Of a stretch of 64,000 nt of DNA, positions 15,001-64,000 are shown in pieces. The translations under genes were made by a program, and so were the position numbers. This stretch comes from Eledone cirrhosa (Eukaryota). The stretch spans positions 16,368,001 to 16,432,000 of the forward strand of contig OZ024766.1 in assembly GCA_964016885.1 (NCBI GenBank), read 5' to 3'. The notes under the pieces were generated by a model. It was not told the origin of the DNA. It ran no database searches and saw nothing but the letters and a program-made list of their open reading frames with translations. Every line of letters begins with the position of its first letter. Position 1 is the first letter of the stretch.

Positions 15001-16237
15001 ATGTCAGCTGACATACAGGTGTCCATGGCTGTCTTATTTAACTGGCTACTCCAGTGACTGCTCCTTCTAGTCCATTCTTCCAATGTCAGTTGCCATACAG
15101 GTGTCCATGGCTGTCTTATTTAACTGGCTACTCCAGTGACTGCTCCTTCTAGTCCATTCTACCAATGTCAGTTGTCATACAGGTGTCCATGGCTGTCTTA
15201 TTTAACTGGCTACTCCAGTGACTGCTCCTTCTAGTCCATTCTTCCAATGTCAGTTGTCATACAGGTGTCCATGGCTGTCTTATTTAACTGGCCTACTCCA
15301 GTGACTGCTCCTTCTAGTCCCTTCTTCCAATGTTAGTTGTCATACAGGTGTCCATGGCCGTCTTATTTAACTGGCTACTTCAGTGACTGCTCCTTCTAGT
15401 CCCTTCTTCCAATGTTAGTTGTCATACAGGAGTCCATGGCTGTCTTATTTAACTGGCTACTCCAGTGACTACTCCTTCTAGTCCCTTCTTCCAATGTTAG
15501 TTGTCATACAGGTGTCCATGGCTGTCTTATTTAGCTGGCTACTCCAGTGACTGCTGCTTCTAGTCTCTTCTTCCAATGTCAGTTGTCATACAGGTGTCCA
15601 TGGCTGTCTTATTTAACTGGCTACTCCAGTGACTGCTCCTTCTAGTCTCTTCTTCCAATGTCAGTTATCATACAGGTGTCCATGGCTGACTTATTTAACT
15701 GGCTACTCCAGTGATTGCCCCTTCTAGTCTCTTCTTCCAATGTCAGTTGTCATACAGGTGTCCATGGCTGTCTTATTTAACTGGCTACTCAAGTGACTGC
15801 TCCTTCTAGTCCATTCTTCCAATGTCAGTTGTCATACAGGAGTCCATGGCTGTCTTATTTAACTGGCTACTCAAGTGACTGCTCCTTCTAGTCCATTCTT
15901 CCAATGTCAGTTGTCATACAGGAGTCCATAGTTGTCTTATTTAACTGGCTACTCAAGTGACTGCTCCTTCTAGTCCATTCTTCCAATGTCAGTTGTCATA
16001 CAGGAGTCCATGGCTGTCTTATTTAACTGGCTACTCCAGTGACTGCTCCTTTTAGTCCCTTCTTCCAATGTCAGTTGTCATACAGGTGTCCATGGCTGTC
16101 TTATTTAACTGGCTACTCCAGTGACTGCTCCCTCTAGTCCCTTCTTCCAATGTCAGTTGTCATACAGGAGTCCATGGCTGTCTTATTTTACTGGCTACTC
16201 CAGTGACTGCCCCTTCTTGTCTCTTCTTCCAATGTCA
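1..16237 (-). repeat. 82-bp tandem satellite (~198 copies, truncated by window start), derived from Helitron coding sequence
   Basis: Unit ttcttccaatgtcagttgtcatacaggtgtccatggctgtcttatttaactggctactccagtgactgctccttctagtctc recurs at 1, 83, etc. and runs directly into the Helitron fragment at ~16240. Confidence 0.98.
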
Positions 16238-16655
16238 ATTGCCATGCAGGAGTTGATGTTCTTTAAATGCTTCTTGATATGTGCTGCACTCTTCCTCCAA
16301 ATCACCTGAGATCCTCAAATGTCGTTGGTCCTTGAACAATAAGCAGAAGTGGCTGTAAATAAAAACTCTCTCTGTTGTTGGGGTGGTCATTGTAAACATG
16401 CCCAATAGCATCACTTGCCTTGTCTTCATCACCTTCCACTAAATGACCCTGCTTCCTTTGATTCCAAGTCTTACAATTGGTCCAGGTGTAGTATTTTGGG
16501 ATGTCAGCATATAGGAGGGATCGAAGAAATTCTTTATTCTGGCAGAGTTTCAAAAAAGCAGTTAGAGTAGTGTCAGGTGGTGCTGGTGTCAACTGATGAG
16601 CAGTGGTTTCAGTGAAGTACACACTCTGTCCATTTTCTATATGTATAGAGATAAG
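16200..16655 (-). mobile_element. Helitron Rep/helicase pseudogene fragment (module copy 1)
   Basis: Translation HIENGQSVYF..PPDTTLTAF..LLYADIPKYYTW..WNQRKQG..IGHVY..ESFYLQPLL..GPTTFEDLR then (frameshift) TYQEAF..LL matches the conserved Helitron region between the Rep and PIF1 domains. Confidence 0.88.
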
Positions 16656-19535: not shown

Positions 19536-20072
19536 GTGGAGGAAGATTTCTTGTAACTAATTAAAAACTAAAATAATTTGATTTTTCAATAAAAAGTTTC
19601 CAGGGTTTATAGATGTAAAATTTCCACTGTTAAATCTATCTCTGCTTCTTAAGTATTCTCTATTATCTCATACTGTTTCTTTTTCATTTCAGAATATCAG
19701 ATGACATTGGGATAAATTATTATTTTCAATCTTGGATACATCACCTCTATTTATCATCATTTGAAGATTAAAACTTTTTAAACAGAACTTATGTAACACT
19801 GTTTATAAAAATCAATCAGAATTACTGTGATATATTTCCTCAGAACTGAGTTTAAAGACAAAATTCCTTTTCTTCACTGTGTGGTATATATATGAGAGAT
19901 ATATTTTGTATTTTAACTCAACTTCAATGACAAAGAAGTTTGCATCATCTTCAGGTATTAACTGAGATCATAATTGAGGGAAATATAACAGAAGAAATAT
20001 TTTTTAGGAATATAATATAAAAAATAGTAAAGAATAACATCTGTAAATTCTGCCAAGGGAAGAAGAATTATT

Positions 20073-21770
20073 ATGGAAAATAAATTGAGTGAAAAGAAGA
20101 TTAAATGTGAAACAATGTCTAAAGATATGGCTATTACAGAAGAGATGTCAAAGGATAGAGGAGAGAAGCCATATCGCTGTGATGTGTGTGGTAAATCATT
20201 CTCTGTTAGTAGTAAATTAACTACTCACATACGTACCCATACAGGAGAGAAGCCATATAACTGTGATATCTGTGGTAAATCATTCGCTCAAAGTAGTATA
20301 TTAACTAACCACATGCATATACATACAGGTGAGAAACCATATCGCTGTGATATCTGTGGTAAATCATTCTCTCTAAGTAGTATATTAACTTGTCACATAC
20401 GTACCCATACAGGTGACAAACCATATCACTGTGATATCTGTGGTAAATCATTCTCTGTTAGTAGTAAATTAACTAGTCACATACGTACCCATACAGGAGA
20501 GAAGCCATATAACTGTGATATCTGTGGTAAATCATTCTCTCAAAGTAGTATATTAACTAACCACATGCATATACATACAGGTGAGAAACCATATCGCTGT
20601 GATATCTGTGGTAAATCATTCTCTCTAAGTAGTATATTAACTTGTCACATACGTACCCATACAGGTGACAAACCATATCACTGTGATATCTGTGGTAAAT
20701 CATTCTCTGAAAGTGGTACCTTAACTAGCCACAAACGTACCCATAGAGGAGAGAAGCCATATCACTGTGATATCTGTGGTAAATCATTCTCTCGAAGTAG
20801 TTATTTAACTACACACAAACATATACATACAGGAGAGAAGCCATATCACTGTGATATCTGTGGTAAATCATTCTTTGTTAATAGTAAATTAACTAGACAC
20901 AAACGTATACATACAGGAGAGAAGCCATATCACTGTGATATCTGTGGTAAATCCTTCAATAAAAGTATTCACTTAACTACACACATGCGTATACATACAG
21001 GTGAGAAACCATATCACTGTGATATCTGTGGTAAATCATTCTCTTTTAGTCGTACATTAACTACTCACAAATGTATACAGACAGGAGAGAAGCCATATCA
21101 CTGTGATATCTGTGGTAAATCATTCTTTGTTAATAGTAATTTAACTAAACACAAATGTATACATACAGGAGAGAAGCCTTATCACTGTGATATCTGTGGT
21201 AAATCATTCTCTCAGAGTAGTGCCTTAACTAGACACAAACGTATACATACAGGAGAGAGGCCATATGACTGTGATATCTGTGGTAAATCATTCTCTCAAT
21301 GTGGTCACTTAACTAGCCACAAACATATACATACAGGAGAGAAGCCATATCACTGTGATATCTGTGGTAAATCATTCTCTCGAAGTGGTCACTTAACTAG
21401 CCACAAACGTATACATACAGTAGAGAAGCCATATCACTGTGATATCTGTGGTATATCATTCTCTCAATGTAGTCAAATAACTAGCCACAAACGTACCCAT
21501 ACAGGAGAGAAGCCTTATCACTGTGATATCTGTGGTAAATCATTCTCTCAAAGTGGTACCTTAACTAGCCACATACATACTCATACAGGAGACCAGCCTT
21601 ATCACTGTGATATCTGTGGTAGATCATTCTCTCAAAGTAGTCACTTAACTAAACACTTACGTATCCATACAGGTGAGAAGCCATATCGCTGTGATATCTG
21701 TGGTAAATCATTCTCTCAATTAAGTAGTTTAACTAGACACAAATATACCCATACCGGTAAGAAACCATAA
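20073..21770 (+). CDS. Poly-C2H2 zinc-finger protein, 565 aa, 19 fingers (finger 11 has H>Q)
   Basis: Open ORF of CxxC-12-HxxxH repeats with TGEKPY linkers after a ~33 aa leader. Confidence 0.95.
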
Positions 21771-33251: not shown

Positions 33252-34865
33252 TTATGGTTTCTTACCTGTATGGGTATATTTGTGTTTAGTTAAATTACTT
33301 AATTGAGAGAATGATTTACCACAGATATCACAGTGATGTGGCTTCTCACCTGTATGGATACGTAAGTGTTGAGTTAAGGGACTACTTTGAGAGAATGATT
33401 TACCACAGATATCACAGCGATATGGTTTGTCTCCTGTATGTATACGTTTGTGACTAATTAAATTACTACAAGAAGAGAATGATTTACCACAGATATCACA
33501 GTGATATGGCTTGTCACCTGTATGGGTACGTATGTGACGAGTTAATATACTACTTAGAGAGAATGATTTACCACAGATATCACAGCGATATGGTTTTTCA
33601 CCTGTATGTATACGCATGTGTGTAGTTAAGTTACTACTTTTATTGAATGATATACCACAGATATCACAGTGATATGGCTTCTCACCTGTATGTATACGTT
33701 TGTGTCTAGTTAATTTACTATTAACAAAGAATGATTTACCACAGATATCACAGTGATATGGTTTCTCTCTTGTATGTATATGTTTGTGTGTAGGTAAATG
33801 ACTACTTCGAGAGAATGATTTGCCACAGATATCACAGTGATATGGCTTGTCACCTGTATGGGTATGTTTGTGGCTAGTTAAGGTACCACTTTCAGAGAAT
33901 GATTTACCACAGATATCACAGTTATATGGCTTCTCTCTTGTATGTATATGTTTGTGTGTAGTTAAATGACTACTTAGAGAGAATGATTTACCACAGATAT
34001 CACAGTGATATGGTTTCTCACCTGTATGTATACGCATGTGTTTAGTTAAGTTACTAATTTGAGAGAATGATTTACCACAGATATCACAGTGATTTGGCTT
34101 CTCTCCTGTATGTATATGTTTGTGTGTAGTTAAGGTACCACTTAGAGAGAATGATTTACCACAGATATCACAGTGATATGGCTTCTCTCCTGTATGTATA
34201 TGTTTGTGTGTAGTTAAATGACTACTTCGAGAGAATGATTTACCACAGATATCACAGTGGTATGGCTTGTCACCTGTATGGGTACGTTTGTGGCTAGTTA
34301 AGGTACCACTTTCAGAGAATGATATACCACAGATATCACAGTGATATGGCTTCTCTCCTGTATGTATATGTTTGTGTGTAGTTAAGGTACTACTTTGAGA
34401 AAATGATTTACCACAGATATCACAGTGATTCGGCTTCTCTCCTGTATGTATATGTTTGTGTGTAGTTAAGGTACAACTTTGAGAGAATGATTTACCACAG
34501 ATATCACAGTGATATGGCTTGTCTCCTGTATGTGTACGTTTGTGGCTACTTAAGTGACCACTTCCAGAGAATGATTTACCACAGATATCACAGCGATATG
34601 GTTTCTCACCTGTATGTATACGTTTGTGGCTAGTTAATATACTACTTTGAGAGAATGATTTACCACATATATCACAGATATATGGCTTCTCTCCTGTATG
34701 GGTACGTTTGTGTCTAGTTAATTTACTACTAACAGAGAATGATTTACCACAGACATCACAGTGATATGGCTTCTCTCCTCTATTGTTTGACATCTCTTCT
34801 GGAATAGCCATATCTTTAGACATTGTTTCACATTTAATCTTCTTTTCACTCAATTTATTTTCCAT
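33252..34865 (-). CDS. Poly-C2H2 zinc-finger protein, 537 aa, 18 fingers
   Basis: Intact ORF with nearly the same leader and terminal finger as copy 1. Confidence 0.95.
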
Positions 34866-35108
34866 AATAATTCTTCTTCCCTTGGCAGAATTTACAGATG
34901 TTATTCTTTAATATTTTTCATATTATATTCTTAAAAAATATTTCTTCTGTTATATTTCCCTCAATTATGATCTCAGTTAATACCTGAAGATGATGCAAAC
35001 TTCTTTGTCATTGAAGTTGAGTTAAAATACAAAATATATCTCTCATATATATACCACACAGTGAAGAAAAGGAATTTTGTCTTTAAACTCAGTTCTGAGG
35101 AAATATAT

Positions 35109-38344: not shown

Positions 38345-40322
38345 CTCTATACATATAGAAAATGGACAGAGTGTGTACTTCACTGAAACCACTGCTTATC
38401 AGTTGACACCAGCACCACCTGACACTACTCTAACTGCTTTTTTGGAACACTGCCAGAATAAAGAATTTCTTCGATCCCTCCTATATGCTGACATCCCAAA
38501 ATACTACAACTGACATTAGAAGAAGGGACTAGAAGGAGCAGTCACTGGAGTAGCCAGTTAAATAAGACAGCCATGGACACCTGTATGACAACTGACATTG
38601 GAAGAAGAGACTAGAAGGAGCAGTCACTGGAGTAGCCAGTTAAATAAGACAGCCATGGACTCCTGTATGACAACTGACATTGGAAGAAGGGACTAGAGGG
38701 AGCAGTCACTGCAGTAGCCAGTTAAATAAGACAGCCATGGACACCTGTATGACAACTGACATTGGAAGAAGAGACTAGAAGGGGCAGTCACTGGAGTAGC
38801 CAGTGAAATAAGACAGCCATGGACTCCTGTATGACAATTGACATTGGAAGAAGAGACTAGAAGGGGCAGTCACTGGAGTAGCCAGTGAAATAAGTCAGCC
38901 ATGGACACCTGTATGACAACTGACATTGGAAGAAGGGACTAGAAGGGGCAATCACTGGAGTAGCCAGTTAAATAAGACAGCCATGGACACCTGTATAACA
39001 ACTGACATTGGAAGAAGGGACTAGAAGGAACAGTCACTGGAGTAGCCAGTTAAATAAGACAGCCATGGACTCCTGTATGACAACTGACATTGGAAGAAGA
39101 GACTAGAAGGGGCAGTCACTGGAGTAGCCAGTTAAATAAGACAGCCATGGACTCCTGTATGACAACTGACATTGGAAGAAGAGACTAGAAGGAGCAGTCA
39201 CTGGAGTAGCCAGTTAAATAAGACAGCCATGGACACCTGTATGACAACTGACATTGGAAGAAGAAGAGACTAGAAGGAGCAGTCACTGGAGTAGCCAGTT
39301 AAATAAGACAGCCATGGACACCTGTATAACAACTGACATTGGAAGAAGGGACTAGAAGGAACAGTCACTGGAGTAGCCAGTTCAATAAGACAGCCATGGA
39401 CTCCTGTATGACAACTGAGATTGGAAGAAGAGACTAGAAGGAGCAGTCACTGGAGTAGCCAGTTAAATAAGACAGCCATGGACACCTGTATGACAACTGA
39501 CATTGGAAGAAGAGACTAGAAGGAGCAGTCACTGGAGTAGCCAGTTAAATAAGACAGCCATGGACACCTGTATAACAACTGACATTGGAAGAAGGGACTA
39601 GAAGGAACAGTCACTGGAGTAGCCAGTTAAATAAGACAGCCATGGACTCCTGTATGACAACTGAGATTGGAAGAAGAGACTAGAAGGAGCAGTCACTGGA
39701 GTAGCCAATTAAATAAGACAGCCATGGACTCCTGTATGACAACTGACATTCGAAGGAGAGACTAGGAGCAGTCACTGGAGTGGCCAATTAAATAAGACAG
39801 CCATGGACACCTGTATGACAACTGACATTGGAAGAAGGGACTAAAAGGAGCAGTCACTGTAGTAGCCAGTTAAATAAGACAGCCATGGACTCCTGTATGA
39901 CAACTGAGATTGGAAGAATGGACTAGAAGTAGCGGTCACTGGAGTAGCCAGTTAAATAAGACAGTTGTTTGCTACTATACTCACAGCATGTGGAATAGAT
40001 CTCATCTACCCTGGCAGGAGCACAAAAACAATATGTCAGACGACTATCTACACCTAGCCCAAAGACGTTATAGCAATATTTATGTGGAATCTACCTCCAG
40101 GATTTACCATCAACCTCTGTGCAACCTGTCCCATTGAATTCCAGCAATGAATAGCAATGCGGGATGCCAGAGCCAGAAGAAATTGAGGTAACACAATCAG
40201 TTTTTCAGGAGACAAACCATGATATTGAAGTGTTGCGTAAGTTTGTGGATGAAAATAAACCTTGACTGGTGGATGACCAGAAATATGCCTACCACAACAT
40301 CATGAAAAACATTCAACATGAC
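38345..40322 (+). mobile_element. Helitron Rep/helicase fragment (copy 2) interrupted by the 82-bp array
   Basis: HIENGQSVYF..DIPKYY, a ~270-bp deletion relative to copy 3, the array, then IRQLFATILTAC..WQEHKNNMSDDYL..LVDDQKYAY. Confidence 0.85.
38508..39964 (+). repeat. 82-bp satellite, ~18 copies
   Basis: Reverse complement of the unit at 1-16237. Confidence 0.97.
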
Positions 40323-43232: not shown

Positions 43233-44258
43233 TTATGGTTTCTTACCTGTATGGGTATATTTGTGTTTAGTTAAATTACTTAATTGAGAGAATGATTTAC
43301 CACAGATATCACAGTGATGTGGCTTCTCTCCTGTATGGATACGTAAGTGTTGAGTTAAGGGACTACTTTGAGAGAATGATTTACCACAGATATCACAGCG
43401 ATATGGCTTCTCCCCTGTATGGATACGTAAGTGCTCAGTTAAATAACTTCTTCGAGAGAATGATTTACCACAGATATCACAGTGATATGGTTTGTCTCCT
43501 GTATGAGTACGTTTGTGTCTAGTTAAGGTACTACTATCAGAGAATGATTTACTACAGATATCACAGTGATATGGCTTGTCTCCTGTATGTATACGTTTGT
43601 GGCTAGTTAAGGTACTACTATCAGAGAATGATTTACCACAGATATCACAGTGATATGGCTTCTCTCCTGTATGGGTACGTTTGTGGCTAGTTAAGTGACC
43701 ACTTTGAGAGAATGATTTACCACAGATATCACAGTGATATGGCTTCTCACCTGTATGTATACTTTTGTGTCTAGTTAAATTACTATTAACAAAGAATGAT
43801 TTACCACAGATATCACAGTGATATGGCTTCTCTCCTGAATGGGTACGTTTGTGGCTAGTTAAACTAATATTATTAAAGAATGATTTACCACAGATATCAC
43901 AGTTATAAGGCTTCTCTCCTGTATGAGTACGTATGTGAGAAGTTAAATTACTACTAAAAGACAATGATTTACCACAGATATCACAGTGATAAGGCTTGTC
44001 TCCTGTATGTGTACGTTTGTGGCTAGTTAAAGTACTACTTACAGAGAATGATTTACCACAGATATCACAGTGATATGGTTTGTCACCTGTATGGGTACGT
44101 ATGTGACAAATTAATATACGACTTAGAGAGAATGATTTACCACAGACATCACAGTGATATGGCTTCTCTCCTCTATCCTTTGACATCTCTTCTGTAATAG
44201 CCATATCTTTAGACATTGTTTCACATTTAATCTTCTTTTCACTCAATTTATTTTCCAT
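43233..44258 (-). CDS. Poly-C2H2 zinc-finger protein, 341 aa, 11 fingers
   Basis: Intact ORF with the same leader and terminal finger as the other copies. Confidence 0.93.
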
Positions 44259-44794
44259 AATAATTCTTCTTCCCTTGGCAGAATTTACAGATGTTATTCT
44301 TTAATATTTTTTATATTATATTCCTAAAAAATATTTCTTCCGTTATATTTCCCTCAATTATGATCTCAGTTAATACTTGAAGATGATGCAAACTTCTTTG
44401 TCATTGAAGCTGAGTTAAAATACAAAATATATCTCTCATATATACACCACACAGTGAAGAAAAGGAATTTTGTCTTTAAACTCAGTTCTGAGGAAATATA
44501 TCACAGTAATTCTGATAGATTTATATAAACAGTGTTATATAAGTTCTGTTTAAAAAGTTTTAATCTTCAAATGATGATAAATAGAGGTGATGTATCCAAG
44601 ATTGAAAATAATAATTTATCCCAATGTCATCTGATATTCTGAAATGAAAAAGAAACAGTATGAAATAATAGAGTATACTTAAGAAGCAGAGATAGATTAA
44701 ACAGTGGAAATTTCACATCTATAAACCCTAGAAACTTTTTATTGAAAAATCAAATTATTTTAGTTTTTAATTAGTTACAAGAAATCTTCCTCCA

Positions 44795-45967: not shown

Positions 45968-48900
45968 ATTAATTTACTTAAAGCAACAACAAGGTACAGC
46001 TAAATATAAACTATATTTTATAATGTAAGGTAGTGAACAAGTTAATTAAATAGACGGAGGTAATTTAAATAATAAATATATCTTTACTTTACTTAAAGCA
46101 ATAACAAGGTACAGCTAAATATAAACTATATTTTATAACGTAAGGTAGTGAACCACATAATTAAATAGACGGAGGTAATTTAAATAATAAATATATCTTT
46201 AATTTACTTAAAGCAATAACAAGGTACAGCTAAATATAAACTATATTTTATAATGTAAGGTAGTGAACAAGATAATTAAATAGATGGAGGTAATTTAAAG
46301 AATAAAAATATCTTTAACTTACTTAAAGCAATGACAAGGTACAGCTAAATATAAACTATATTTTATAATGTAAGGTAGTGAACAAGATAATTAAATTGAC
46401 GGAGGTAATTTAAATAATAAATATATCTTTAATTTACTTAAAGCAATGACAAGGTACAGCTAAATATAAAATATATTTTATAATGTAAGGTAGTGAACAA
46501 GATAATTAAATAGACGGAGGTAATTTAAATAATAAATATATCTTTAATTTACTTAAAGCAACAACAAGGTACAGCTAAATATAAACTATAATTTATAATG
46601 TAAGGTAGTGAACAAGATAATTAAATAAACGGAGGTAATTTAAATCATAAATATATCTTTAATTTACTTAAAGCAACAACAAGGTACAGCTAAATATAAA
46701 ATATATTTTATAATGTAAGGTAGTGAACAAGATAATTAAATAGACGGAGGTAATTTAAATAATAAATATATCTTTAATTTACTTAAAGCAATGACAAGGT
46801 ACAGTTAAATATAAACTATATTTTATAATGTAAGGTAGTGAACAAGATAATTAAATAGACGGAGGTAATTTAAATAATAAATATATCTTTAATTTACTTA
46901 AAGCAATGACAAGGTACAGCTAAATATAAAATATATTTTATAATGTAAGGTAGTGAACAAGATAATTAAATAGACGGAGGTAATTTAGATAATAAATACA
47001 TCTTTAATTTACTTAAAGCAATGACAAGGTACAGCTAAATATAAACTATATTTTATAATGTAAGGTAGTGAACAAGATAATTAAATAGACGGAGGTAATT
47101 TAAATAATAAATATATCTTTAATTTACTTAAAGCCATAACAAGGTACAGCTAAATATAAACTATATTTTATAATGTAAGGTAGTGAACAAGATAATTAAA
47201 TAGACGGAGGTAATTTAAATAATACATATATCTTTAATTTACTTAAAGCAATAACAAGGTATAGCTGAATATAAAATATATTTTATAATGTAAGGTAGTG
47301 AACAAGATAATTAAATAGACGGGGGTAATTTAAATAATAAATATATCTTTAATTTACTTAAAGCAACAACAAGGTACAGCTAAATATAAACTATATTTTA
47401 TAATGTAAGGTAGTGAACAAGATAATTAAATAGACGGAGGTAATTTAAATAATACATATATCTTTAATTTACTTAAAGCAATAACAAGGTACAGCTAAAT
47501 ATAAAATATATTTTATAATGTAAGGTAGTGAACAAGATAATTAAATAGATGGAGGTAATTTAGATAATAAATACATCTTTAATTTACTTAAAGCAATGAC
47601 AAGGTACAGCTAAATATAAACTATATTTTATAATGTAAGGTAGTGAACAAGATAATTAAATAGACGGAGGTAATTTAAATAATAAATATATCTTTAATTT
47701 ACTTAAAGCAACAACAAGGTACAGCTAAATATAAACTGTATTTTATAATGTAAAGTAGTGAACCACATAATTAAATAGACGGAGGTAATTTAAATAATAA
47801 ATATAGCTTTAACTTACTTAAAGCAATGACAAGGTACAGCTAAATATAAACTATATTTTATAATGTAAGGTAGTGAACCACATAATTAAATAGACGGAGG
47901 TAATTTAAATAATAAATATATCTTTAATTTACTTAAAGCAATGACAAGGTACAGCTAAATATAAACTATATTTTATAATGTAAGGTAGTGAACAAGATAA
48001 TTAAATTGACGGAGGTAATTTAAATAATAAATATATCTTTAATTTACTTAAAGCAATGACAAGGTACAGCTAAATATAAAATATATTTTATAATGTAAGG
48101 TAGTGAACAAGATAATTAAATAGACGGAGGTAATTTAAATAATAAATATATCTTTAATTTACTTAAAGCAACAACAAGGTACAGCTAAATATAAACTATA
48201 ATTTATAATGTAAGGTAGTGAACAAGATAATTAAATAGACGGAGGTAATTTAAATAATAAATATATCTTTAATTTACTTAAAGCAACAACAAGGTACAGC
48301 TAAATATAAACTATATTTTATAATGTAAGGTAGTGAACAAGATAATTAAATAGACGGAGGTAATTTAAAGAATAAAAATATCTTTAACTTACTTAAAGCA
48401 ATGACAAGGTACAGCTAAATATAAACTATATTTTATAATGTAAGGTAGTGAACAAGATAATTAAATAGACGGAGGTAATTTAAAGAATAAAAATATCTTT
48501 AATTTACTTAAAGCAATGACAAGGTACAGCTAAATATAAACTATATTTTATAATGTAAGGTAGTGAACAAGATAATTAAATTGACGGAGGTAATTTAAAT
48601 AATAAATATATCTTTAATTTACTTAAAGCAATGACAAGGTACAGCTAAATATAAAATATATTTTATAATGTAAGGTAGTGAACAAGATAATTAAATAGAC
48701 GGAGGTAATTTAAATAATAAATATATCTTTAATTTACTTAAAGCAATGACAAGGTACAGTTAAATATAAACTATATTTTATAATGTAAGGTAGTGAACAA
48801 GATAATTAAATAGACGGAGGTAATTTAGATAATAAATACATCTTTAATTTACTTAAAGCAATGACAAGGTACAGCTAAATATAAACTATATTTTATAATG

Positions 48901-51372
48901 TAAGGTAGTGAACAAGATAATTAAATAGACGGAGGTAATTTAAATAATAAATATATCTTTAATTTACTTAAAGCAACAACAAGGTACAGCTAAATATAAA
49001 CTGTATTTTATAATGTAAAGTAGTGAACCACATAATTAAATAGACGGAGGTAATTTAAATAATAAATATAGCTTTAACTTACTTAAAGCAATGACAAGGT
49101 ACAGCTAAATATAAACTATATTTTATAATGTAAGGTAGTGAACCACATAATTAAATAGACGGAGGTAATTTAAATAATAAATATATCTTTAATTTACTTA
49201 AAGCAATGACAAGGTACAGCTAAATATAAACTATATTTTATAATGTAAGGTAGTGAACAAGATAATTAAATTGACGGAGGTAATTTAAATAATAAATATA
49301 TCTTTAATTTACTTAAAGCAATGACAAGGTACAGCTAAATATAAAATATATTTTATAATGTAAGGTAGTGAACAAGATAATTAAATAGACGGAGGTAATT
49401 TAAATAATAAATATATCTTTAATTTACTTAAAGCAACAACAAGGTACAGCTAAATATAAACTATAATTTATAATGTAAGGTAGTGAACAAGATAATTAAA
49501 TAGACGGAGGTAATTTAAATAATAAATATATCTTTAATTTACTTAAAGCAACAACAAGGTACAGCTAAATATAAACTATATTTTATAATGTAAGGTAGTG
49601 AACAAGATAATTAAATAGACGGAGGTAATTTAAAGAATAAAAATATCTTTAACTTACTTAAAGCAATGACAAGGTACAGCTAAATATAAACTATATTTTA
49701 TAATGTAAGGTAGTGAACAAGATAATTAAATAGACGGAGGTAATTTAAAGAATAAAAATATCTTTAATTTACTTAAAGCAATGACAAGGTACAGCTAAAT
49801 ATAAACTATATTTTATAATGTAAGGTAGTGAACAAGATAATTAAATTGACGGAGGTAATTTAAATAATAAATATATCTTTAATTTACTTAAAGCAATGAC
49901 AAGGTACAGCTAAATATAAAATATATTTTATAATGTAAGGTAGTGAACAAGATAATTAAATAGACGGAGGTAATTTAAATAATAAATATATCTTTAATTT
50001 ACTTAAAGCAATGACAAGGTACAGTTAAATATAAACTATATTTTATAATGTAAGGTAGTGAACAAGATAATTAAATAGACGGAGGTAATTTAGATAATAA
50101 ATACATCTTTAATTTACTTAAAGCAATGACAAGGTACAGCTAAATATAAACTATATTTTATAATGTAAGGTAGTGAACAAGATAATTAAATAGACGGAGG
50201 TAATTTAAATAATAAATATATCTTTAATTTACTTAAAGCAACAACAAGGTACAGCTAAATATAAACTGTATTTTATAATGTAAAGTAGTGAACCACATAA
50301 TTAAATAGACGGAGGTAATTTAAATAATAAATATAGCTTTAACTTACTTAAAGCAATGACAAGGTACAGCTAAATATAAACTATATTTTATAATGTAAGG
50401 TAGTGAACCACATAATTAAATAGACGGAGGTAATTTAAATAATAAATATATCTTTAATTTACTTAAAGCAATGACAAGGTACAGCTAAATATAAACTATA
50501 TTTTATAATGTAAGGTAGTGAACAAGATAATTAAATTGACGGAGGTAATTTAAATAATAAATATATCTTTAATTTACTTAAAGCAATGACAAGGTACAGC
50601 TAAATATAAAATATATTTTATAATGTAAGGTAGTGAACAAGATAATTAAATAGACGGAGGTAATTTAAATAATAAATATATCTTTAATTTACTTAAAGCA
50701 ACAACAAGGTACAGCTAAATATAAACTATAATTTATAATGTAAGGTAGTGAACAAGATAATTAAATAGACGGAGGTAATTTAAATAATAAATATATCTTT
50801 AATTTACTTAAAGCAACAACAAGGTACAGCTAAATATAAACTATATTTTATAATGTAAGGTAGTGAACAAGATAATTAAATAGACGGAGGTAATTTAAAG
50901 AATAAAAATATCTTTAACTTACTTAAAGCAATGACAAGGTACAGCTAAATATAAACTATATTTTATAATGTAAGGTAGTGAACAAGATAATTAAATAGAC
51001 GGAGGTAATTTAAAGAATAAAAATATCTTTAATTTACTTAAAGCAATGACAAGGTACAGCTAAATATAAAATATATTTTATAATGTAAGGTAGTGAACAA
51101 GATAATTAAATAGACGGAGGTAATTTAAATAATAAATATATCTTTAACTTACTTAAAGCAATGACAAGGTACAGCTAAATATAAACTATATTTTATAATG
51201 TAAAGTAGTGAACAAGATAATTAAATAGACGGAGGTAATTTAAATAATAAATACATCTTTAATTTACTTAAAGCAATGACAAGGTACAGCTAAATATAAA
51301 CTATATTTTATAATGTAAGGTAGTGAACAAGTTAATTAAATAGACGGAGGTAATTTAAATAATAAAGATATC
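45968..51372 (-). repeat. 115-bp satellite, ~47 copies (last unit resumes at 55471-55583)
   Basis: Period 115 (aagca at 46211, 46326, 46441, 46556). Confidence 0.97.
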
Positions 51373-51658
51373 TGTGGGTATGGTGTGGGGTGCGGTGGCC
51401 GGAGTGCTCGACCGGAAGGGGTTTTTGAGTGCTCGACAGGAAGGGGTCTTTGACCGGAAGGATGCTCGACCGGAAGGGCCAGGAGAGGGCCTCAGCATAC
51501 GGTGAGGACGCGTTTTGGGCAGCTTCCGGTGTTAAGCAGTCGGACGCACGTGGAAGAGGAGTACCTGCAGTGGAATTTAGCGGCGCCTGTGAAAAGCGGT
51601 AAGTGAGATAGCTTTTTCTAACCACAAGTTATTTCGGCGACTGAATAAAAAAAAGAAG

Positions 51659-51691
<33 letters not shown>

Positions 51692-51715
51692 ACTTGCCGC
51701 AAAACAAATCAGAAG

Positions 51716-52477
51716 ATGGCGACAAGACTACGGATGAACGAAGCTATCAGGCCATTCACCGGGAAAGGTGATGTTGTCGCTTGGCTGCGGAAGGTTCGGC
51801 TGGTCGCAAGCTTGCAGAAGATAGAGGACGTGGCCGGCCTCATGGCACTGTACCTCGAGGGCGACGCGTTGGTACTCTTCCTTGAGTTGGACGAGCACAG
51901 CCAAAGAGATGTGCAGAAGATTGAGAGGCGTCTGATGGATGCATTCTCCGAGGGACCGTTGGCGGCTTTTGCTAAGCTGGCGAGAATCAGGTGGAATGGT
52001 GAGCGCGTCGACATTTTCGCAGCGGAAATAAGGCGGTTGGCCATGTTGGCGGGTTACCAGGCGGAATGCGAACGCACGGTGCGGTTGGCGTTCATCAATG
52101 GATTTCCGGACGACATAGCGGTGAAACTGCAGCAAGTCCCGGGGTACAAGGAGATGGAAATGCGTACACTGGTGGAACAAGCCCGGATCATAGCGGAAGA
52201 TGCCAAAAAGAGTGTTGCGGCGATAGCAACTACGGAGGCTCAGGACACCTGGCAGCGAAATGGTCAAAGGGAGGCAACCTCGGCATGCGGCCGTTCGCGA
52301 GAATTTAAGGGCCTCTGTTTTAGGTACCAGGGCCCGCATATGGCTAGAGACTGTAGAGAGTCGAAGCCGGATATAATTTGCTACCGGTGTAAGCGACCAG
52401 GCCACATCGCTACTAACTGCGACCAGGGAAACGGTCCAAGGGGAACTACTGCGCCGGTAGTTGCCCCTTACGAGTAG
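51716..52477 (+). CDS. gag: Gag-like protein with CCHC zinc knuckles
   Basis: 253-aa ORF with CYRCKRPGHIATNC and a degenerate CFRYQGPHMARDC knuckle. Confidence 0.85.
   Translation: MATRLRMNEAIRPFTGKGDVVAWLRKVRLVASLQKIEDVAGLMALYLEGDALVLFLELDEHSQRDVQKIERRLMDAFSEGPLAAFAKLARIRWNGERVDIFAAEIRRLAMLAGYQAECERTVRLAFINGFPDDIAVKLQQVPGYKEMEMRTLVEQARIIAEDAKKSVAAIATTEAQDTWQRNGQREATSACGRSREFKGLCFRYQGPHMARDCRESKPDIICYRCKRPGHIATNCDQGNGPRGTTAPVVAPYE
52426..52469 (+). promoter_or_regulatory. -1 programmed ribosomal frameshift signal
   Basis: G GGA AAC in the gag frame, a 5-nt spacer, then hairpin AAGGGG-AACTAC..GTAGTT-g-CCCCTT. The -1 frame is open into the protease. Confidence 0.8.
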
Positions 52478-55291
52478 CGGCGCTGCCCGTGGTGGAAGTC
52501 TTCGTGAGGGGGAAGCCACAGCGAGCCCTCGTGGATACGGGCTGTACGACGACACTGTGGACCGCGGGGGTGGCGCAGAGGTGGGGAGGGAAGAGCAGCG
52601 TAAGGGCAGTCGACGGCAGGAAAATTGAATGCCGAGGTCGCAGCGAGATGGAAATAGCGGTTCGGGGAAGGAGGATAAGGCTTTCCGCCATCGTGGTAGA
52701 CAGTGTGGTGGATGGGATCGGCGTGGTTATGGGCTTGGACGCGATTGGCCGTCTAGGGGGCGTCACGGTGAACAATGTCGGTGTGTCGTTTGGCGCCGCT
52801 GCATCAGTATGCGCTGTGAGTGCACGTCATGAGAACCAGAAGGCCCACGAGGAGCAATACCCCGCTTACACTGTACAGGACAAAGACTTCAAGGCCGTGT
52901 TTGATGGGCAGCGATGGGTTGTTGAGTGGTACTGGAAGGGAGAACCACCAACACTGAAGACCAAAGTGGGCTGCTATCAACACACATTGAAGGGAAACGC
53001 TAGGGGCGAGTTCGAGCGAGAAGTAGAGAGATGGATCGAAGAGGGCATACTGCTTCCCTGGAAGGAGGAGGTGAAGTGCAGAGTATTGCCGTTGATGGCG
53101 GTGGTGCAACCCACGAAGAGCAAGGTGAGGCCGGTGCTGGACTATCGAGAGCTGAACGAGCACGTGTCATGCCACACGGGTGGCGAGGTCACGGATGTCT
53201 GGGGAAACCCTGCGTGAGTGGAGACGCATGACGGGGGGTTCAGCGATCGTGGATCTAAAGTCGGCTTACTTGCAGTTGCATATAGATGAGAAGCTCTGGC
53301 GGTATCAGCTGGTCAGGTATAAGGGCCGGATATATTGCCTGACCAGGCTCGGTTTCGGGCTGAGCTCCGCACCGAAGATCATGGCGGCGGTCCTCAAGAC
53401 CGCTCTGGGGAGGGCCGACAAGATAAAGAGGGCCACTAACTCCTACATTGACGACATCCTAGTGGATAAGTCGGTGGTGTCGACGGCGGAGGTCACGAGC
53501 CATTTGCGGAGGTATGGACTGGCTGCGAAGCCGTCAGAAGCGTTGGAGGGAGGAGCCGCGCTGGGACTTAGGCTACGGCGAGACAGGACGGGCGTCTTGG
53601 TGTTCCAGAGGGGAAACGAAGTTCCGGAACTGGGCCCAAGTATGAGTAGGCGGGAGCTTTTCTCGGTGTGTGGAAAGCTGGTGGGTCACTACCCGATCGC
53701 TGGGTGGCTCCGGACGGCATGCAGCTATGTCAAGAGACGAGCGGGAGGGGTGACTTGGAGTGACAGAGTGGGAGAGAGAACGGTGGCCATGATGCAGGAG
53801 ATCGTGGGGGAGGGTGAAGGCCGATGACCCAGTGCGGGGACGCTGGTACGTTCCCAAATCACGGGGCGGGACCGTATGGTGCGGCGATGCCAGCAGCATA
53901 GCGCTGGGTGTCACGTTGGAGATAGGAGGTGTTGAGGTCGAGGATGCAGCCTGGCTTAGAAAGAAGGACGACTGCAGCCACATCAATGTGGCCGAGCTGG
54001 ACGCGGTGTTGAGAGGGGTGAACCTCGCCCTGCGGTGGGGGCTGCGCACCATCGAGATACGCACCGACTCGGATGGGTAAGATCAGTGCTCACCAGTGAG
54101 AAGAGAGTGCGAACGAGAGGCGCGGCGGAGATGCTGATAAAGCGCCGCCTGGGAACGTTAGGAGAGCTGGCCACCGAGTTCGACCTGAAGCTGAGCGTAG
54201 TTTTCGTGCCCTCAGAGAAAAATAGGGCGGACATCTTAACTAGAGTGAAGAAAGCCTGGATGGAAGCGCCGGAGGAGGTAGAGGATGAGATAGCTGCCGT
54301 GTGTCGGCTGACCGAGTTAGACCTGAAGGGGTTGCATGACATGCACCACATGGGGGTGGATAGGAGCCTGTTCCTAGCCAGGAGAATCGACTCGGACGTT
54401 AGCAGACACAGTGTTCGGGGGGTGGTTAGAGGCTGCGTCCGATGTCAGTCCATTGATCCCGCCCCGGGTGTACACGAAACGGGAAGCCTCCCGGTGGATC
54501 GCGACTGGAAGCGATTAGCGGTGGATGTGACGCACTACCGGCAGGGAACGTACCTCTCGATGGTCGACTGTGGACCAGGTCGAGTGGCGATATGGAGGGA
54601 GATGAAGACTGGAACGGCCGAGGAAATCGTGCGGACGTTGAGAGAGGTGTTCTTGGAGCGGGGCCCTGTGGATGAACTGCTGATGGACAACAGCGCAGCG
54701 TTCCGCTCGGAGACACTGAGGGGGATGCTCGAGGGATGGAAGGTGGACCGTTTCTTCAGAGCGGCGCACAGGCCGAGCGGGAATGGAATCGTGGAGCGAC
54801 ACCACCGGACGATCAAGGCAATGGCGGAGCGGGGCCATATCTCACCAATGGAGGCAGTGTTCTGGTACAATATGTCCCCTCGGGTTGGACAGGTCGAGGA
54901 ATCGGTCCCACACAGAGCAGTATTCAAATACGAGTGGCGGCACCCGTGCACGCCACCACAACGGCCAGTGGGGAGAGAGAGTGCATTCGTGCAGGTGGGC
55001 GAAGAAGTCTGGGTTAAGCCCCCAGATGCACGGTGCACATCTCAATGGGGAAGGGGAACGGTGACGGCCGTAAATTCAAAGAACAATGTGTCCGTGGACG
55101 GGGTACCACGTCATGTCCTGGATGTAAGAAGAATCACTGTATCGACGGACTCCGAGGAAGAGGAAACCCAAGATGAGGTGGAAACCCAGAGCCCTGCCCC
55201 AATACTACGAAGATCGCAACGAAGTCGTAGACCACCGACCTGGACGGCAGACTTTCATATGCAGAGGGACGAGGGGGAAATTGATCCTTGA
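52432..55291 (+). pseudogene. pol: Pol (aspartic protease, RT, RNase H, DDE integrase) with three frameshifts (~53200, ~53812, ~54070)
   Basis: ALVDTGC; KVRPVLD..DLKSAYLQ..GFGLSSAP..YIDD; DAS..HINVAEL..TDS; HHCC, VDV..MDN..NGIVER. Confidence 0.9.
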
Positions 55292-56328
55292 GATCGGGGG
55301 GGGTGTATGGTGTGGCGTGCGGTGGCCGGGGGCGGGGGGCTCGACCGGAAGGGGTCTTTGACCGGAAGGATGCTCGACCGGAAGGGCCTCTCTCTAGTGG
55401 TGACCAGCATACGGTGAGGACGCGTTTTGGCCAGCTCCCGGTGTTAAACAGTCGGACGCACGTGGAAGAGTATCTTTAACTTACTTAAAGCAATAACAAG
55501 GTACAGCTAAATATAAACTATATTTTATAATGTAAGGTAGTGAACAAGATAATTAAATAGACGGAGGTAATTTAAATAATAAAGACAGTCATAACAATAT
55601 ATTTTATATCACATGTAACAGTGGAATCTGGTTAATTACTGAATCGTTGTAGGGGTCACATAATTATATTATTTACACACATTAATATAGACATTAAGTA
55701 AATCTTTGTCAACTTACCTCCTTCACATATAATCAATGTGTTGTGTTGTTAGTTGTTACTAAACAACCAAAGAAATAATCTCTTTGTTATCAAATTAGAA
55801 GTTTCAATGTTATCAGCTTTATTTCACGACATTAACGTTGGTGTATCTTCTTCATCTTTAGTCATAAATTGATATCTTGTCAGAATGAAGTAGTGAGGCT
55901 GACTTTATGTCTTTAGCTACAGCTTTGATATGAAATATATATATATTAGGTTGATACGTGGTCTAAAATATATATATTGTCTATAAATGACTGATAGCAG
56001 ATGTTCTGGTGAAATAGTAGTTTTACTACTACAGATTGTAACGGAACTCTTAGTAGACACAATTGTAAAGTAAGAATAGATATGACAGTGTAAGACTGAT
56101 GTCGGGGAATTAAAATTGTGTGTGTGTATATATATATAATTGTTACACAAGATATAATTAGATTAATTAAAGTTATAACGAAGACAGCAGGTACTCGGTG
56201 TCTTAACGAATGTTTCAACTCTCGTACGGTGTCAAACGTTAAAAGTCCCTGACATAATTTAATACCTTCACACACATTTCCAGTCGTATTGAATTCGAGA
56301 GTGATGTGATTTATTAAAAAGAAATGTG

Positions 56329-56611: not shown

Positions 56612-58752
56612 TCTCTATACATATAAAAATGGACAGAGTGTGTACTTCACTGAAACCACTGCTCATCAGTTGACACCAGCACCACCTGACACTACTCTAA
56701 CTGCTTTTTTGAAACACTGCCAGAATAAAGAATTTGTTCGATCCCTCCTATATGCTGACATCCCAAAATACTACACCTGGACCAATTGTAATACTTGGAA
56801 TCAAAGGAAGCAGGGTCATTTAGTGGAAGGTGATGAAGTCAAGGCAAGTGATGCTATTAGGCATGTTTACAATGACCACCCCAACAACAGAGAGAGTTTT
56901 AATTTACAGCCATTTCTGCTTATTGTTCAAGGACCAACGTCATTTGAGGATCTCAGGTGATTTGGTGGCAGAGTGCAGCACATATCAAGAAGCATTTAAA
57001 GAACATCAACTCCTGCATGGCAATCGACATTGGAAGAAGAGACAAGAAGGGGCAGTCACTGGAGTAGCCAGTTAAATAAGACAGCCATGGACTCCTGTAT
57101 GACAACTGACATTGGAAGAAGGGACTAGAAGGAGCAGTCACTGTAGTAGCCAGTTAAATAAGACAGCCATGGACTCCTGTATGACAACTGACATTGGAAG
57201 AAGAGACTAGAAGGGGAAATCACTGGAGTAGCCAGTTAAACAAGACAGCCATGGACACCTGTATGACAACTGACATTGGAAGAAGAGACTAGAAGGAGCA
57301 GTCACTGGAGTAGCCAGTTAAATAAGACAGCCATGGACTCCTGTATGACAACTGACATTGGAAGAAGGGACTAGAAGGAGCAGTCACTGGAGTGGTCAGT
57401 TAAATAAGACAGCCATGGACTCCTGTATGACAACTGACATTGGAAGGGACTAGAAGGAGCAGTCACTGTAGTAGCCAGTTAAATAAGACAGCCATGGACA
57501 CCTGTACGACAACTGACATTGGAAGAAGGGACTAGAAGGAGCAGTCACTGGAGTAGCCAGTTAAATAAGACAGCCATGGACTCCTGTATCACAACTGACA
57601 TTGGAAGAAGGGACTAGAAGGAGCAGTCACTGGAGTAGCCAGTTAAATAAGACAGCCATGGAGTCCTGTATGACAACTAACATTGGAAGAAGGGACTAGA
57701 AAGAGCAGTCACTGGAGTAGCCAGTTAAATAAGACAGCCATGGACTCCTGTATGACAACTAACATTGGAAGAAGGGACTAGAAGGAGCAGTCACTGTAGT
57801 AGCCAGTTAAATAAGACAGCCATGGACTCCTGTATCACAAATGACATTGGAAAAGGGGACTAGAAGGAGCAGTCACTGGAGTAGCCAGTTAAATAAGACA
57901 GCCATGGGCACCTATATGACAACTAACATTGGAAGAAGGGACTAGAAGGAGCAGTCATTGGAGTAGCCAGTTAAATAAGACAGCCATGGACTCCTGTATG
58001 ACAACTAACATTGGAAAAAGGGACTAGAAGGAACAGTCACTTGAGTAGCCAGTTAAATAAGACAGCCATGGACACCTGTACGACAACTGACATTGGAAGA
58101 AGGGACTAGAAGGAGCAGTCACTGGAGTAGCCAGTTAAATAAGACAGCCATGGACACCTGTACGACAACTGACATTGGAAGAAGGGACTAGAAGGAGCAG
58201 TCACTGGAGTAGCCAGTTAAATAAGACAGCCATGGACTCCTGTATGACAACTAACATTGGAAAAAGGGACTAGAAGGAACAGTCACTTGAGTAGCCAGTT
58301 AAATAAGACAGCCATGGACACCTGTACGACAACTGACATTGGAAGAAGGGACTAGAAGGAGCAGTCACTGGAGTAGCCAGTTAAATAAGACAGTTGTTTG
58401 CTACTATACTCACAGCATGTGGAATAAATCTCATCTACCCTGGCAGGAGCACAAAAACAATATGTCAGACGACTATCTACACCTAGCCCAAAGACGTTAG
58501 AGCAATATTTTTGTGGAATCTACCTCCAGGATTTACAATCAACCTCTGTGCAACCTGTCCCATTGAATTCCAGCAATGAATAGCAATGCGGGATGCCAGA
58601 GCCAGAAGAAATTGAGGTAATACAATCAGTTTTTCAGGAGACAAACCATGATATTGAAGTGTTGCGTAAGTTTGTGGATGAAAATAAACCTTGACTGGTG
58701 GATGACCAGAAATATGCCTACCACAACATCTTGAAAAACATTCAACATGACA
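56612..58752 (+). mobile_element. Helitron Rep/helicase fragment (copy 3, most complete) interrupted by the 82-bp array
   Basis: ..GPTSFEDLR / TYQEAFKEHQLLHGNRHW [array] IRQLFATILTAC..WQEHKNNMSDDYLH..IYNQ..QETNHDIEVLRKFVDENKP*LVDDQKYAY. Confidence 0.9.
57027..58393 (+). repeat. 82-bp satellite, ~17 copies
   Basis: Same unit as 38508-39964. Confidence 0.97.
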
Positions 58753-60072: not shown

Positions 60073-61845
60073 GCCCTCACAAGTGCTGAGAAGAAAGATG
60101 CATGGAAGAGTCATTATGATAGATTACTAAATGAGGAGAATGCATGGGAAGAAGAAACCCTACCCCAAGTGCAGTAGCATCATTGTCAACTGCTACAAAG
60201 GTAAAGGCGATGCACTAGATAGAGGAAACTATAGAGGTATAAAGTTGATGGACCAGGTCATGAAAGTAACAGAAAGAGTTATAGCACAGCTGATTAGGGA
60301 CCGGGTGAATATAGACGAGATGCAATTTGGGTTTGTACCAGGAAGAAGCACCACTGATGCCCTCTTCCTTGTGAGGCAGTTACAGGAAAAGTACCTAGCT
60401 AAAAGTAAGCCACTCTACTTGGCATTTGTCGACCTTGAGAAAGCCTTTGACAGAGTTCCACGTGCAGTAATCTGGTGGGCTCTTAGAAAACTAGGAGTAG
60501 ATGAATGGCTTGGGAAAGCGGTACAAGCCATGTATAGGGGAGCAGTCAGCAAAGTTAGGATTAGCAATGAGTATAGCGAGGAATTTAGCGTACAGGTTGG
60601 GGTCCACCAGGGCTCTGTTCTTAGCCCTCTCCTGTTCATCATAGTCCTGCAGGCAATAACGGAGGAGTTTAAGACCGGATGCCCATGGGAACTCCTGTAT
60701 GCTGATGACCTCGCACTCATAGCTGAATCTATGTGAGAACTAGAGAATAAATTCCAAACCTGGAAGCAGGGACTAGAGAGAAAGGGTCTCAAAGTCAACA
60801 TGACCAAGACTAAGGTCCTTGTAAGTAGACGAGAAAACAGAACCCAGATCCCCTCGGGGAAATGGCCTTGCTCAGTATGTAGGAAAGGTGTAGCAGCAAA
60901 CAGCCACAGGAAACAAGTACCACCAATCTCTGGGAGGGCCCTGTAGAAACAGTAGACAGCTTCTGCTACCTAGGTGACCGAATTAGCAACGGAGGTGGGT
61001 GTTCAGAAAGTAAAATAACTAGGGTAAGAACGGGATGGAAGAAGTTTAGGGAACTACTACCACTGCTAGCTGCAAAAGGCTTCTCCCTCAGAATGAAAGG
61101 CAGACTGTATGATGCGTGTATCCGAACAGCGATGTTGCATGGTAGTGAGACCTGGGCGCTGAAGGTGGAAGACTTACGTAGATTAGAGAGAAACGAAGCC
61201 TGCATGCTCCGATGGATGTGTAACAGTAATATACGTGAACGACAAAGCATAAATGAATTGAGAGAGAGACTGAGCATAAGAGGAATCAAATGCTGTGTGC
61301 AGGAGAGGCGGTTGCGCTGGTATGGACATGTGATGCGTATGAAGGATGACAGCTGCATAAAAAGGTGCAGAGCACTAGAAGTTGATGAAAACCGCGGAGT
61401 GGGGAGACCCAAGATGACCTGGGATGAGGTGATAAAAGCCGACCTTACCCAATTACACCTCTCAAAGACAATGACACACGACCGTGACTTCTGGCGTCAC
61501 GCAGTAATACAGAGTACCCGACCTCCCATGGGTACATGCTGAAGCATATAAACAATATGCCCCCACACCCCCCACCGCAAGGTGGTCGTGGAGGTGCCAC
61601 GGCAAAAAAGCACCCAGCCCACACTGTAAAGTGGACGTGTAGGCGCCACGAAAAAGCACCCAGCACTCACTGTAAATGAGGTTGGTGTTAGGAAGGGCAT
61701 CCAGCTGTAGAAATCAAGCCAGATCAGTTCCTGTATGAGCAAGGCATGGTCAGCCGACCAGACACTGCACACAACAGGACAACCCGTCTAACCCATGCTA
61801 GCGTGGAAGAACGGACGTAAAACGGTGATGATGATGATGATGATG
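60073..61845 (+). mobile_element. 5'-truncated, internally deleted RTE-clade LINE (RT pseudogene), private to copy 4
   Basis: NYRGIKL..QFGFVPGRSTTDA..FVDLEKAFDRV..GVHQGSVLSPLLF..YADD..LRWYGHVMR; (GAT)n tail; inserted in (TA)n with aatatatat on both sides. Confidence 0.93.

Positions 61846-63000: not shown

Positions 63001-64000
<1,000 letters not shown>

Follow-up and report, generated by a model that had tools for sequence, protein, structure and literature searches.

The question raised by this 64,000-nt stretch of Eledone cirrhosa DNA (contig OZ024766.1, positions 16,368,001 to 16,432,000; called the window below, at its full length) is what kind of retroelement occupies positions 51373-55470 on its + strand. 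The element, 4.1 kb long, is organized as a long terminal repeat (LTR) retrotransposon with the gene order gag, protease (PR), reverse transcriptase (RT), RNase H (RH) and integrase (IN). A first-pass annotation had assigned it to a poorly characterised LTR lineage, with RT and RNase H resembling those of DIRS and partly BEL/Pao elements, and had suggested that it was possibly acquired horizontally. Sequence comparison shows a genuine LTR retrotransposon, whose lineage is deep and apparently unnamed. We are fairly confident that it represents a compact family (4.0-4.7 kb) that stands apart from Gypsy elements, caulimoviruses and retroviruses in RT trees and is likely primed by the first 12 nt of a host transfer RNA (tRNA; Phe or Lys) and not by the tRNA 3' CCA end.

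Placement of the family

Reference sequences were fetched by motif or Pfam model, labelled by domain content, and came from prokaryote bins holding animal repeats. One such bin (G001, with loci L192, L194, L196 and others), titled as a metagenome-assembled genome (MAG) of Sedimenticola, contains animal repeats: RTs of Gypsy, DIRS, BEL and non-LTR type account for at least 150 matches in it. Among the 14 DIRS-like loci tested, six are flanked by an open reading frame (ORF) with a domain of recombinase type or an ALOG domain, and the others were labelled by an integrase-free RT-RH ORF. The Gypsy references are 13-15 unnamed sequences and not the GyDB set, and BEL is represented by three rows. 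The trees omit L258, which lacks YxDD, and a non-LTR row whose anchor was wrong; the last tree also omits eight near-redundant rows.

In the RT tree (55 rows, 233 columns) the family forms one clade (support 100/98) outside a group of Gypsy elements plus caulimoviruses (99/96) and apart from the retroviral rows, and an approximately unbiased (AU) test rejects the family grouped with Gypsy and caulimoviruses (p=0.007). The proposal of a poorly characterised LTR lineage outside Gypsy is thus upheld, and the nesting of the RT within Gypsy that would have spoken against it was not found. The family appears as sister to the three BEL rows (94/90, and 90/83 with hepadnaviruses included), a join flagged as long branches meeting; adding hepadnaviruses leaves the separation from Gypsy unchanged. 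When BEL is removed, the family is still outside Gypsy and falls without resolved branching among DIRS-like rows. An AU test does not reject the family grouped with DIRS (p=0.076), and DIRS is not recovered as a clade in the best RT tree (45/69).

With the RT profile of the family, the 12 best-scoring of 108 rows (9 of them distinct) are DIRS-like ORFs, and with the RNase H profile so are the 6 best, which agrees with the DIRS-like character first read from the motifs; as had also been noted, the element is not DIRS proper, since it has a protease and a DDE integrase, and no domain of the tyrosine recombinase family was found by Pfam in the family pol proteins. The integrase profile matches Gypsy integrases best (E 1e-27) and a BEL integrase at E 0.24; the integrase tree unites 12 of the 13 family rows in a separate clade (96/95). 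PF17917 was detected in 1 of 52 family pol proteins (E 0.008) and PF17919 in none of the 52, while all 20 Gypsy references match both RNase H models (E ≤ 1.1e-25), a comparison that is partly circular in that about half were fetched with PF17917. Peptidase_A17 (PF05380) is absent from all 52; the three BEL references, fetched with that model, all match it (E ≤ 1.5e-44).

Scans of viral contigs gave no family loci and no true matches to the DIRS and BEL patterns, a sequence scan with the Troyka pattern gave chance matches only, and no complete Copia RT was found among the sequences scanned. The language-model clusters nearest to residues 180-610 (RT-RH) of family protein P0001 are Euglenozoan proteins, which we take to be possible VIPER/TATE elements. 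A separate locus, L308:2-4561 (- strand), encodes an LTR-type polyprotein of 1520 aa; its RT is unusual (CVDD), its Gypsy RNase H scores are weak, and its integrase groups loosely with Mag-like rows.

No description of the lineage or of DUF7047, the domain that marks it, was found in the literature searched (subscription papers, Repbase, GyDB and Dfam lay outside the search). The family motifs are absent from the searched parts of the supplements of PMC6238403, PMC8556966 and PMC6681497, files that may contain no protein sequences. Members of the family may already be filed as Gypsy in Repbase, GyDB or Dfam.

Primer-binding site

The most unusual feature of the element, not mentioned in the first-pass annotation, is its primer-binding site, which follows directly on the 5' LTR:

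51373-51626, + strand: 5' LTR, 254 bp, TG..CA, with TGTGG..CCACA ends (5-bp terminal inverted repeat)
51627-51638, + strand: primer-binding site, 12 nt, abutting the LTR and without TGG; pairs with tRNA-Phe bases 1-12, with one G-U pair

Relatives with both LTRs have AGCTA-N4-GGC at the position after the LTR. The 12-nt site stands right after the LTR-terminal CA in 41 of 44 sequences (40 of 43 relatives, plus the window copy), which represent 38 distinct contexts, and it starts exactly at the LTR end in four of the five two-LTR loci. Over the 38 contexts, the bases at positions 1-5 and 10-12 hardly change and those at 6-9 vary; past the site, positions 13-24 carry 0.44 bits or less. The 12-nt motif has no match in 71,740 nt of pol.

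The site reads as the complement of tRNA bases 1-12. It is exactly complementary to a Phe, Lys-CUU or Lys-UUU tRNA start in 15 of 40 sites: the start of human tRNA-Phe, as given in PMC11706605, is the exact complement of the commonest variant (11/40), and the starts of Lys-CUU and Lys-UUU, taken from forward PCR primer sequences, match two sites each (2/40 and 2/40). The variable middle of the site thus switches among real tRNA starts, and conservation stops exactly at tRNA base 1. When phage tRNAs containing the Phe-type 12-mer were located with ARAGORN, the 12-mer lay at tRNA base 1 in 21 of 22. In these phages it begins Thr or Met tRNAs, and the isoacceptor therefore depends on the host.

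A partner in cis was sought without success: 3 of 43 sequences beat shuffled LTRs, none of the 43 came within 3 kcal of full pairing, and complementarity is not above chance family-wide (mean run 7.26 vs 7.26). The two-LTR loci showed no second candidate for a primer site past the end of the LTR, and no tRNA genes were found in the 78 family loci. Reading the site as a Pol III A-box was rejected on inspection, the minus-strand bases after tRNA position 12 being LTR sequence. No description of a primer site of this kind was found in the literature searched, subscription papers being outside the search.

Proposed mechanism

Priming by a 12-nt 5' tRNA fragment is the likely reading of this site. 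Gag-pol would be made by -1 frameshifting and would assemble a capsid, and the 5' arm of a tRNA would pair with the 12-nt site. The cut behind base 12 of the tRNA would most likely be made by the RNase H of the element itself, much as Tf1 frees its self-primer, only in trans; a host nuclease is an alternative source of the cut. The RNase H of Tf1 reportedly cuts an RNA duplex to free the self-primer, which is 11 nt long. Base 12 of the tRNA would oppose the first base after the LTR, placing the 3'-OH of the fragment where minus-strand synthesis must start. Conservation would end at tRNA base 1 because plus-strand copying would run off the 5' end of the primer, and such copying would restore a site of exactly 12 bases. 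At tRNA position 9, the base paired by every one of the 38 contexts is A; m1G9 is a block to copying of a tRNA, which an A would avoid. The DNA would finally be inserted by the DDE integrase, probably with a 5-bp duplication. A fuller proposal is put forward tentatively, as somewhat more apt to fail in some part than to hold in full. On this view, the family is an undescribed LTR superfamily reaching from sponges to octopuses, in which a DIRS-type RT and RNase H are combined with capsid, protease and DDE integrase, and in which the element's RNase H severs a host tRNA behind base 12 so that the 5' piece primes in a new way.

Several observations weigh against the family placement and priming proposed here. 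The site motif was defined from four loci before being counted. In the relatives L010 and L045 the dinucleotide before the 12-mer is altered, the 12-mer is missing from L070, and L040 has it about 100 nt beyond the aligned repeat. The Lys matches rest on PCR primers, and a eukaryotic tRNA match was not found for 25 of the 40 sites, of which 24 fit the pattern and one nearly does. In the window copy, U5 can fold onto the primer site (51604-51640, 11 bp) with a modest z of -2.1; pairing of a similar kind occurs in just a few relatives. The 5-bp target duplication is exact in one of five loci, matches at four of five bases in two and is absent in two. The trees rest on 233-239 columns with long stems and were built without Troyka, Copia, VIPER/TATE, HEART, Loki/Odin or named GyDB references.

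The family in other animals

The family is marked by DUF7047, is large and is widely spread in animals. A protein search with the RT piece retrieves 387 proteins, and there are 722 clusters at 50% identity (E ≤ 1e-10); weaker hits may include other RTs. Named hosts belong to five phyla: Mollusca, Arthropoda, Nematoda, Bryozoa and Porifera. In a scan of metagenomes, 215 stretches were confirmed and 78 loci obtained. The five loci with both LTRs have elements of 4.0-4.7 kb. Gag is about 240-280 aa across the family, and in 34 of 42 rows a slippery heptamer lies close to where it ends (a count made with no chance control). DUF7047 is present and the catalytic residues of RT, RNase H and integrase are invariant in all 52 aligned pol proteins; rve is found in 51 of them.

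Sponge-type members (P0261 and relatives named from Sycon ciliatum) are single gag-pol proteins of about 1400 aa. The one sponge-type integrase tested groups with integrases of endogenous retrovirus type (98/95), apart from the family, which suggests an integrase swap in this member. Two family proteins carry Bacteroidota MAG labels.

Base composition

The element has a GC content of 57.6% and a CpG observed/expected ratio of 0.97, against 36.9% and 0.54 in the non-tandem DNA of the window, and its GC at third codon positions is 0.59-0.71 vs 0.24-0.26 in host zinc-finger ORFs. The first-pass description of a CpG-rich element of roughly 60% GC in an AT-rich host is thus accurate, although by eye the contrast looks exaggerated because the adjoining satellite is just 22% GC. 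Family pol genes range from 0.39 to 0.66 GC (median 0.49, n=77), with a median CpG ratio of 0.9, and elements are GC-richer than their own flanks in five of five loci; a GC content above that of the surrounding DNA is characteristic of the family.

Relatives in the cephalopods Octopus sinensis, Argonauta and Acanthosepion have 56-69% identity, and crustacean relatives, at up to 66%, are about as close. Protein searches gave no near-identity across phyla and no protein above 71% identity from any source. The suggestion of possible horizontal acquisition is therefore not supported: the GC and CpG offset is family-wide, cephalopod relatives are no more distant than crustacean ones, and horizontal transfer is neither shown nor needed.

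Alternative explanations

The placement could be misleading if the family were in truth a rapidly evolving branch of Gypsy or BEL/Pao, one that may already be on record (e.g. in a MolGy/PolGy clade or among Repbase Gypsy entries). The domain order, TG..CA ends and Arc/Ty3-like capsid are shared with these groups, the integrase profile scores best with Gypsy and the RT tree joins BEL; DUF7047 shows that curators have already met such proteins, and PMC6238403 lists 16 mollusc clades, among which it might have a place. Such an offshoot is nevertheless unlikely, given the AU rejection of Gypsy plus caulimoviruses, the near absence of the Gypsy RNase H models and absence of Peptidase_A17 in the 52 pol proteins (with the partial circularity described above), and a BEL join that is flagged as long branches meeting and is not borne out by the integrase. 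A different view of the origin, compatible with our explanation, is that a Gypsy-like shell of gag, PR and IN took up an RT-RH module of DIRS type, or that the lineage lies near the LTR ancestor of DIRS, and that the odd priming came with the module. The split in the profile rankings (DIRS-like first for RT and RNase H, Gypsy first for integrase), the unrejected grouping with DIRS, the position among DIRS-like rows when BEL is removed and the Euglenozoan clusters nearest to RT-RH all favour it, and the sponge-type member with a different integrase implies that module swaps occur. However, the best tree prefers BEL and does not recover DIRS as a clade, the integrase forms its own clade and does not nest in Gypsy, and a profile rank can reflect slow evolution of DIRS; this origin is rather doubtful, though it deserves to be kept in view.

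For the primer site, it might be argued that the 12 nt serve Tf1-like self-priming, or that they act in tRNA capture, packaging or small-RNA control and priming occurs otherwise. Like the self-priming sites of Tf1 and Tj1 (PMC4600332), the site is short, abuts the LTR and has no TGG, and the window copy forms the 11-bp hairpin between U5 and the site. We consider this very improbable, however, in that complementarity in cis is at the level of chance, the site alternates among different real tRNA starts and breaks off at tRNA base 1, and no alternative site was seen past the LTR in the two-LTR loci. Recent horizontal entry into the host, offered for the base composition, is quite unlikely as well: the element does rank among the GC-richest of its family (6 of 77 have 0.57 GC or more), its copies at 90-100% identity in the runs of organism A suggest a recent burst, and its crustacean and cephalopod relatives are about equally close, but the offset in GC and CpG is general across the family, relatives exist in three other cephalopods, and nothing exceeds 71% identity.

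Structure of the window copy

The remaining parts of the element and its insertion site are as follows:

45969-51372: AT-rich satellite of 115-bp repeats, 47 units
51647-51690, + strand: A-rich run of 44 nt in the leader
51716-52477, + strand: gag, 253 aa, two-domain capsid plus zinc knuckles (Pfam zf-CCHC), the first knuckle degenerate in the window copy
52426-52432, + strand: slippery heptamer, predicted -1 frameshift site; pol, in the -1 frame, overlaps the end of gag
52492-52749, + strand: aspartic protease (DTG), from translation and Pfam
52960-53806, + strand: RT (YIDD), followed by DUF7047 at 53645-53806; frame broken near 53200
53811-54250, + strand: RNase H of DIRS-like type (DAS, HINxxEL, TDS, NxAD), with breaks near 53806-53811 and 54070-54090
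54323-55291, + strand: integrase, HHCC and DDE, with an SH3-like tail and no GPY/F, from Pfam and alignment
55292-55303, + strand: polypurine tract, identical in form to that of relatives
55304-55470, + strand: 3' LTR, truncated at its 3' end and adjoining the polypurine tract

The limits given by the first-pass annotation are correct. Raw reads from other copies (206) diverge from the element at 51626, marking the end of the 5' LTR, and empty satellite units are seen as the joint 51368-55471. The insertion lies in the last-but-one unit of the 115-bp satellite, which continues in register after the element with one further unit at 55471 to about 55590, and TATC flanks both sides. The 3' LTR, compared with the first approximately 190 nt of the 5' LTR, has 146 matches, 16 mismatches and 28 gap columns; other copies extend past its break to LTR position 51563 in raw reads. 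Because the 3' LTR is truncated, the true length of the target duplication is unreadable at this locus. The element is multi-copy in organism A, where 3055 contigs of one run align to it, spread over all 30 bins, and many copies have 90-100% identity.

Pfam on five unbroken frames gives, in order, zinc knuckle, aspartic protease, RT, DUF7047, RNase H-like domain and integrase, confirming the gene order first proposed, and every motif quoted then was found in the translations. The window element itself is a damaged copy, with three frameshifts in pol (near 53200, 53806-53811 and 54070-54090); other copies vary in length near two of these. In relatives the gag ATG is just 12-38 nt from the start of the primer site, unlike in the window copy with its A-rich leader. 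The gag structure model (pLDDT 83) has a predicted two-domain retroviral/Arc capsid fold, with murine leukemia virus capsid as its top fold match (Z 12.0, root-mean-square deviation 4.6, 175 aligned), and the gag profile matches dArc1 (E 5.6e-8). The hairpin downstream of the slippery heptamer is not significant (z -0.9). A single RNase H lies directly behind RT/DUF7047 in the structure model, with no tether plus second RNase H. No env ORF was present among the ORFs of the window element, Rfam gave no match within it, and a single-sequence PDB search gave nothing useful; profile and fold searches returned just distant retroviral, caulimoviral and Ty3 matches (10-19% identity), which gave no placement.

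Other features of the window

The window is rich in satellites and C2H2 zinc-finger arrays. The four arrays lie at 20031-21767 (+), 33255-34907 (-), 43236-44300 (-) and 63004-64000 (-); three of them share an N-terminus, and satellites of 77, 82 and 115 bp are interleaved. Together they form a duplicated gene-plus-satellite block present in both orientations. The 82-bp satellite has 198 copies at window positions 1-16250, with strong strand skew; at 38506-39964 and 57009-58393 it forms shorter arrays that run the other way. A broken RT of non-LTR type (60131-61539, Pfam RVT_1 E 3.7e-26) has a GC content above that of the host.

Significance

Troyka has recently been given the rank of a fifth LTR superfamily, and the existence of further overlooked lineages has been predicted (PMC12440569 and PMC11673190). 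The family looks like another such lineage, and a large one with its 722 clusters, and a DIRS-like RT and RNase H in a shell that uses an integrase bears on the relationships of DIRS, BEL and Gypsy. To our knowledge, the priming routes described so far use a tRNA 3' end, a tRNA half, self-priming or protein priming. If the proposed mechanism is true, a 12-nt 5' tRNA piece adds one route, and short 5' tRNA fragments gain a direct role in retroelement replication. Because the site has no TGG, annotation tools that look for one would miss or misfile the family.

Comparison with known systems

With direct LTRs, a primer site, a polypurine tract, a capsid gag and PR-RT-RH-DDE integrase, the element has the features of an LTR retrotransposon (Ortervirales-like). 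Like Metaviridae/Ty3-Gypsy, it has the order gag-PR-RT-RH-IN, TG..CA LTRs, a polypurine tract, an Arc/Ty3-like capsid, an HHCC-DDE integrase and a probable 5-bp duplication; however, the order PR-RT-RH-IN and the TG..CA ends are also BEL traits and hence not diagnostic. The family differs from Ty3-Gypsy in an RT outside the Gypsy and caulimovirus clade, in lacking the Gypsy-type RNase H Pfam models and a TGG site, in having DUF7047, and in that only 2 of 52 family proteins have GP[YF] in the integrase tail. Belpaoviridae/BEL-Pao elements share the domain order and are the nearest group in two RT trees (94/90 and 90/83), a join of two long stems; unlike them, the family has no Peptidase_A17 (0/52), an integrase unrelated beyond the fold (E 0.24), a small separate gag and a length of about 4 kb. 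The DIRS order (DIRS1, Ngaro, VIPER) is similar in RT and RNase H motifs, gives the best profile scores and is not rejected as sister (AU p=0.076), but the family has a protease, a DDE integrase, a capsid and direct LTRs, and no tyrosine recombinase.

Troyka/Kuafuorterviruses are a lineage of aquatic animals long filed as Gypsy, with CG..CG termini, [IVL]ADD, CX2CX8-10HX4C and a length of 5-6 kb, according to PMC12440569 and PMC11673190. The family shares their domain order and the lack of a tether and of GPY/F. By that description it is otherwise unlike them, having TG..CA termini, YxDD ([IVL]ADD in 0/52), CX2CX4HX4C (CX2CX8-10HX4C in 0/33) and a length of 4-4.7 kb; membership of the Troyka/Kuafuorterviridae type is ruled out by the termini, the YxDD motif and the knuckle spacing, the trees containing no Troyka row. 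Retroviridae and Loki/Odin were rejected on the single RNase H directly after RT/DUF7047, the lack of an env ORF and an RT apart from the retroviral rows, and Copia on an integrase that does not precede RT and the absence of RVT_2 (Pfam).

In priming, the family resembles Tf1/Tj1 self-priming elements (PMC4600332) in a short non-TGG site adjoining the LTR and a primer that needs to be cut. Unlike in these elements, the partner would be tRNA bases 1-12 in trans and not the element's own 5' end. Copia primes with a half-tRNA from the anticodon arm; the proposed primer is like it in arising by a cut, but would consist of tRNA bases 1-12 and not of an anticodon-arm half.

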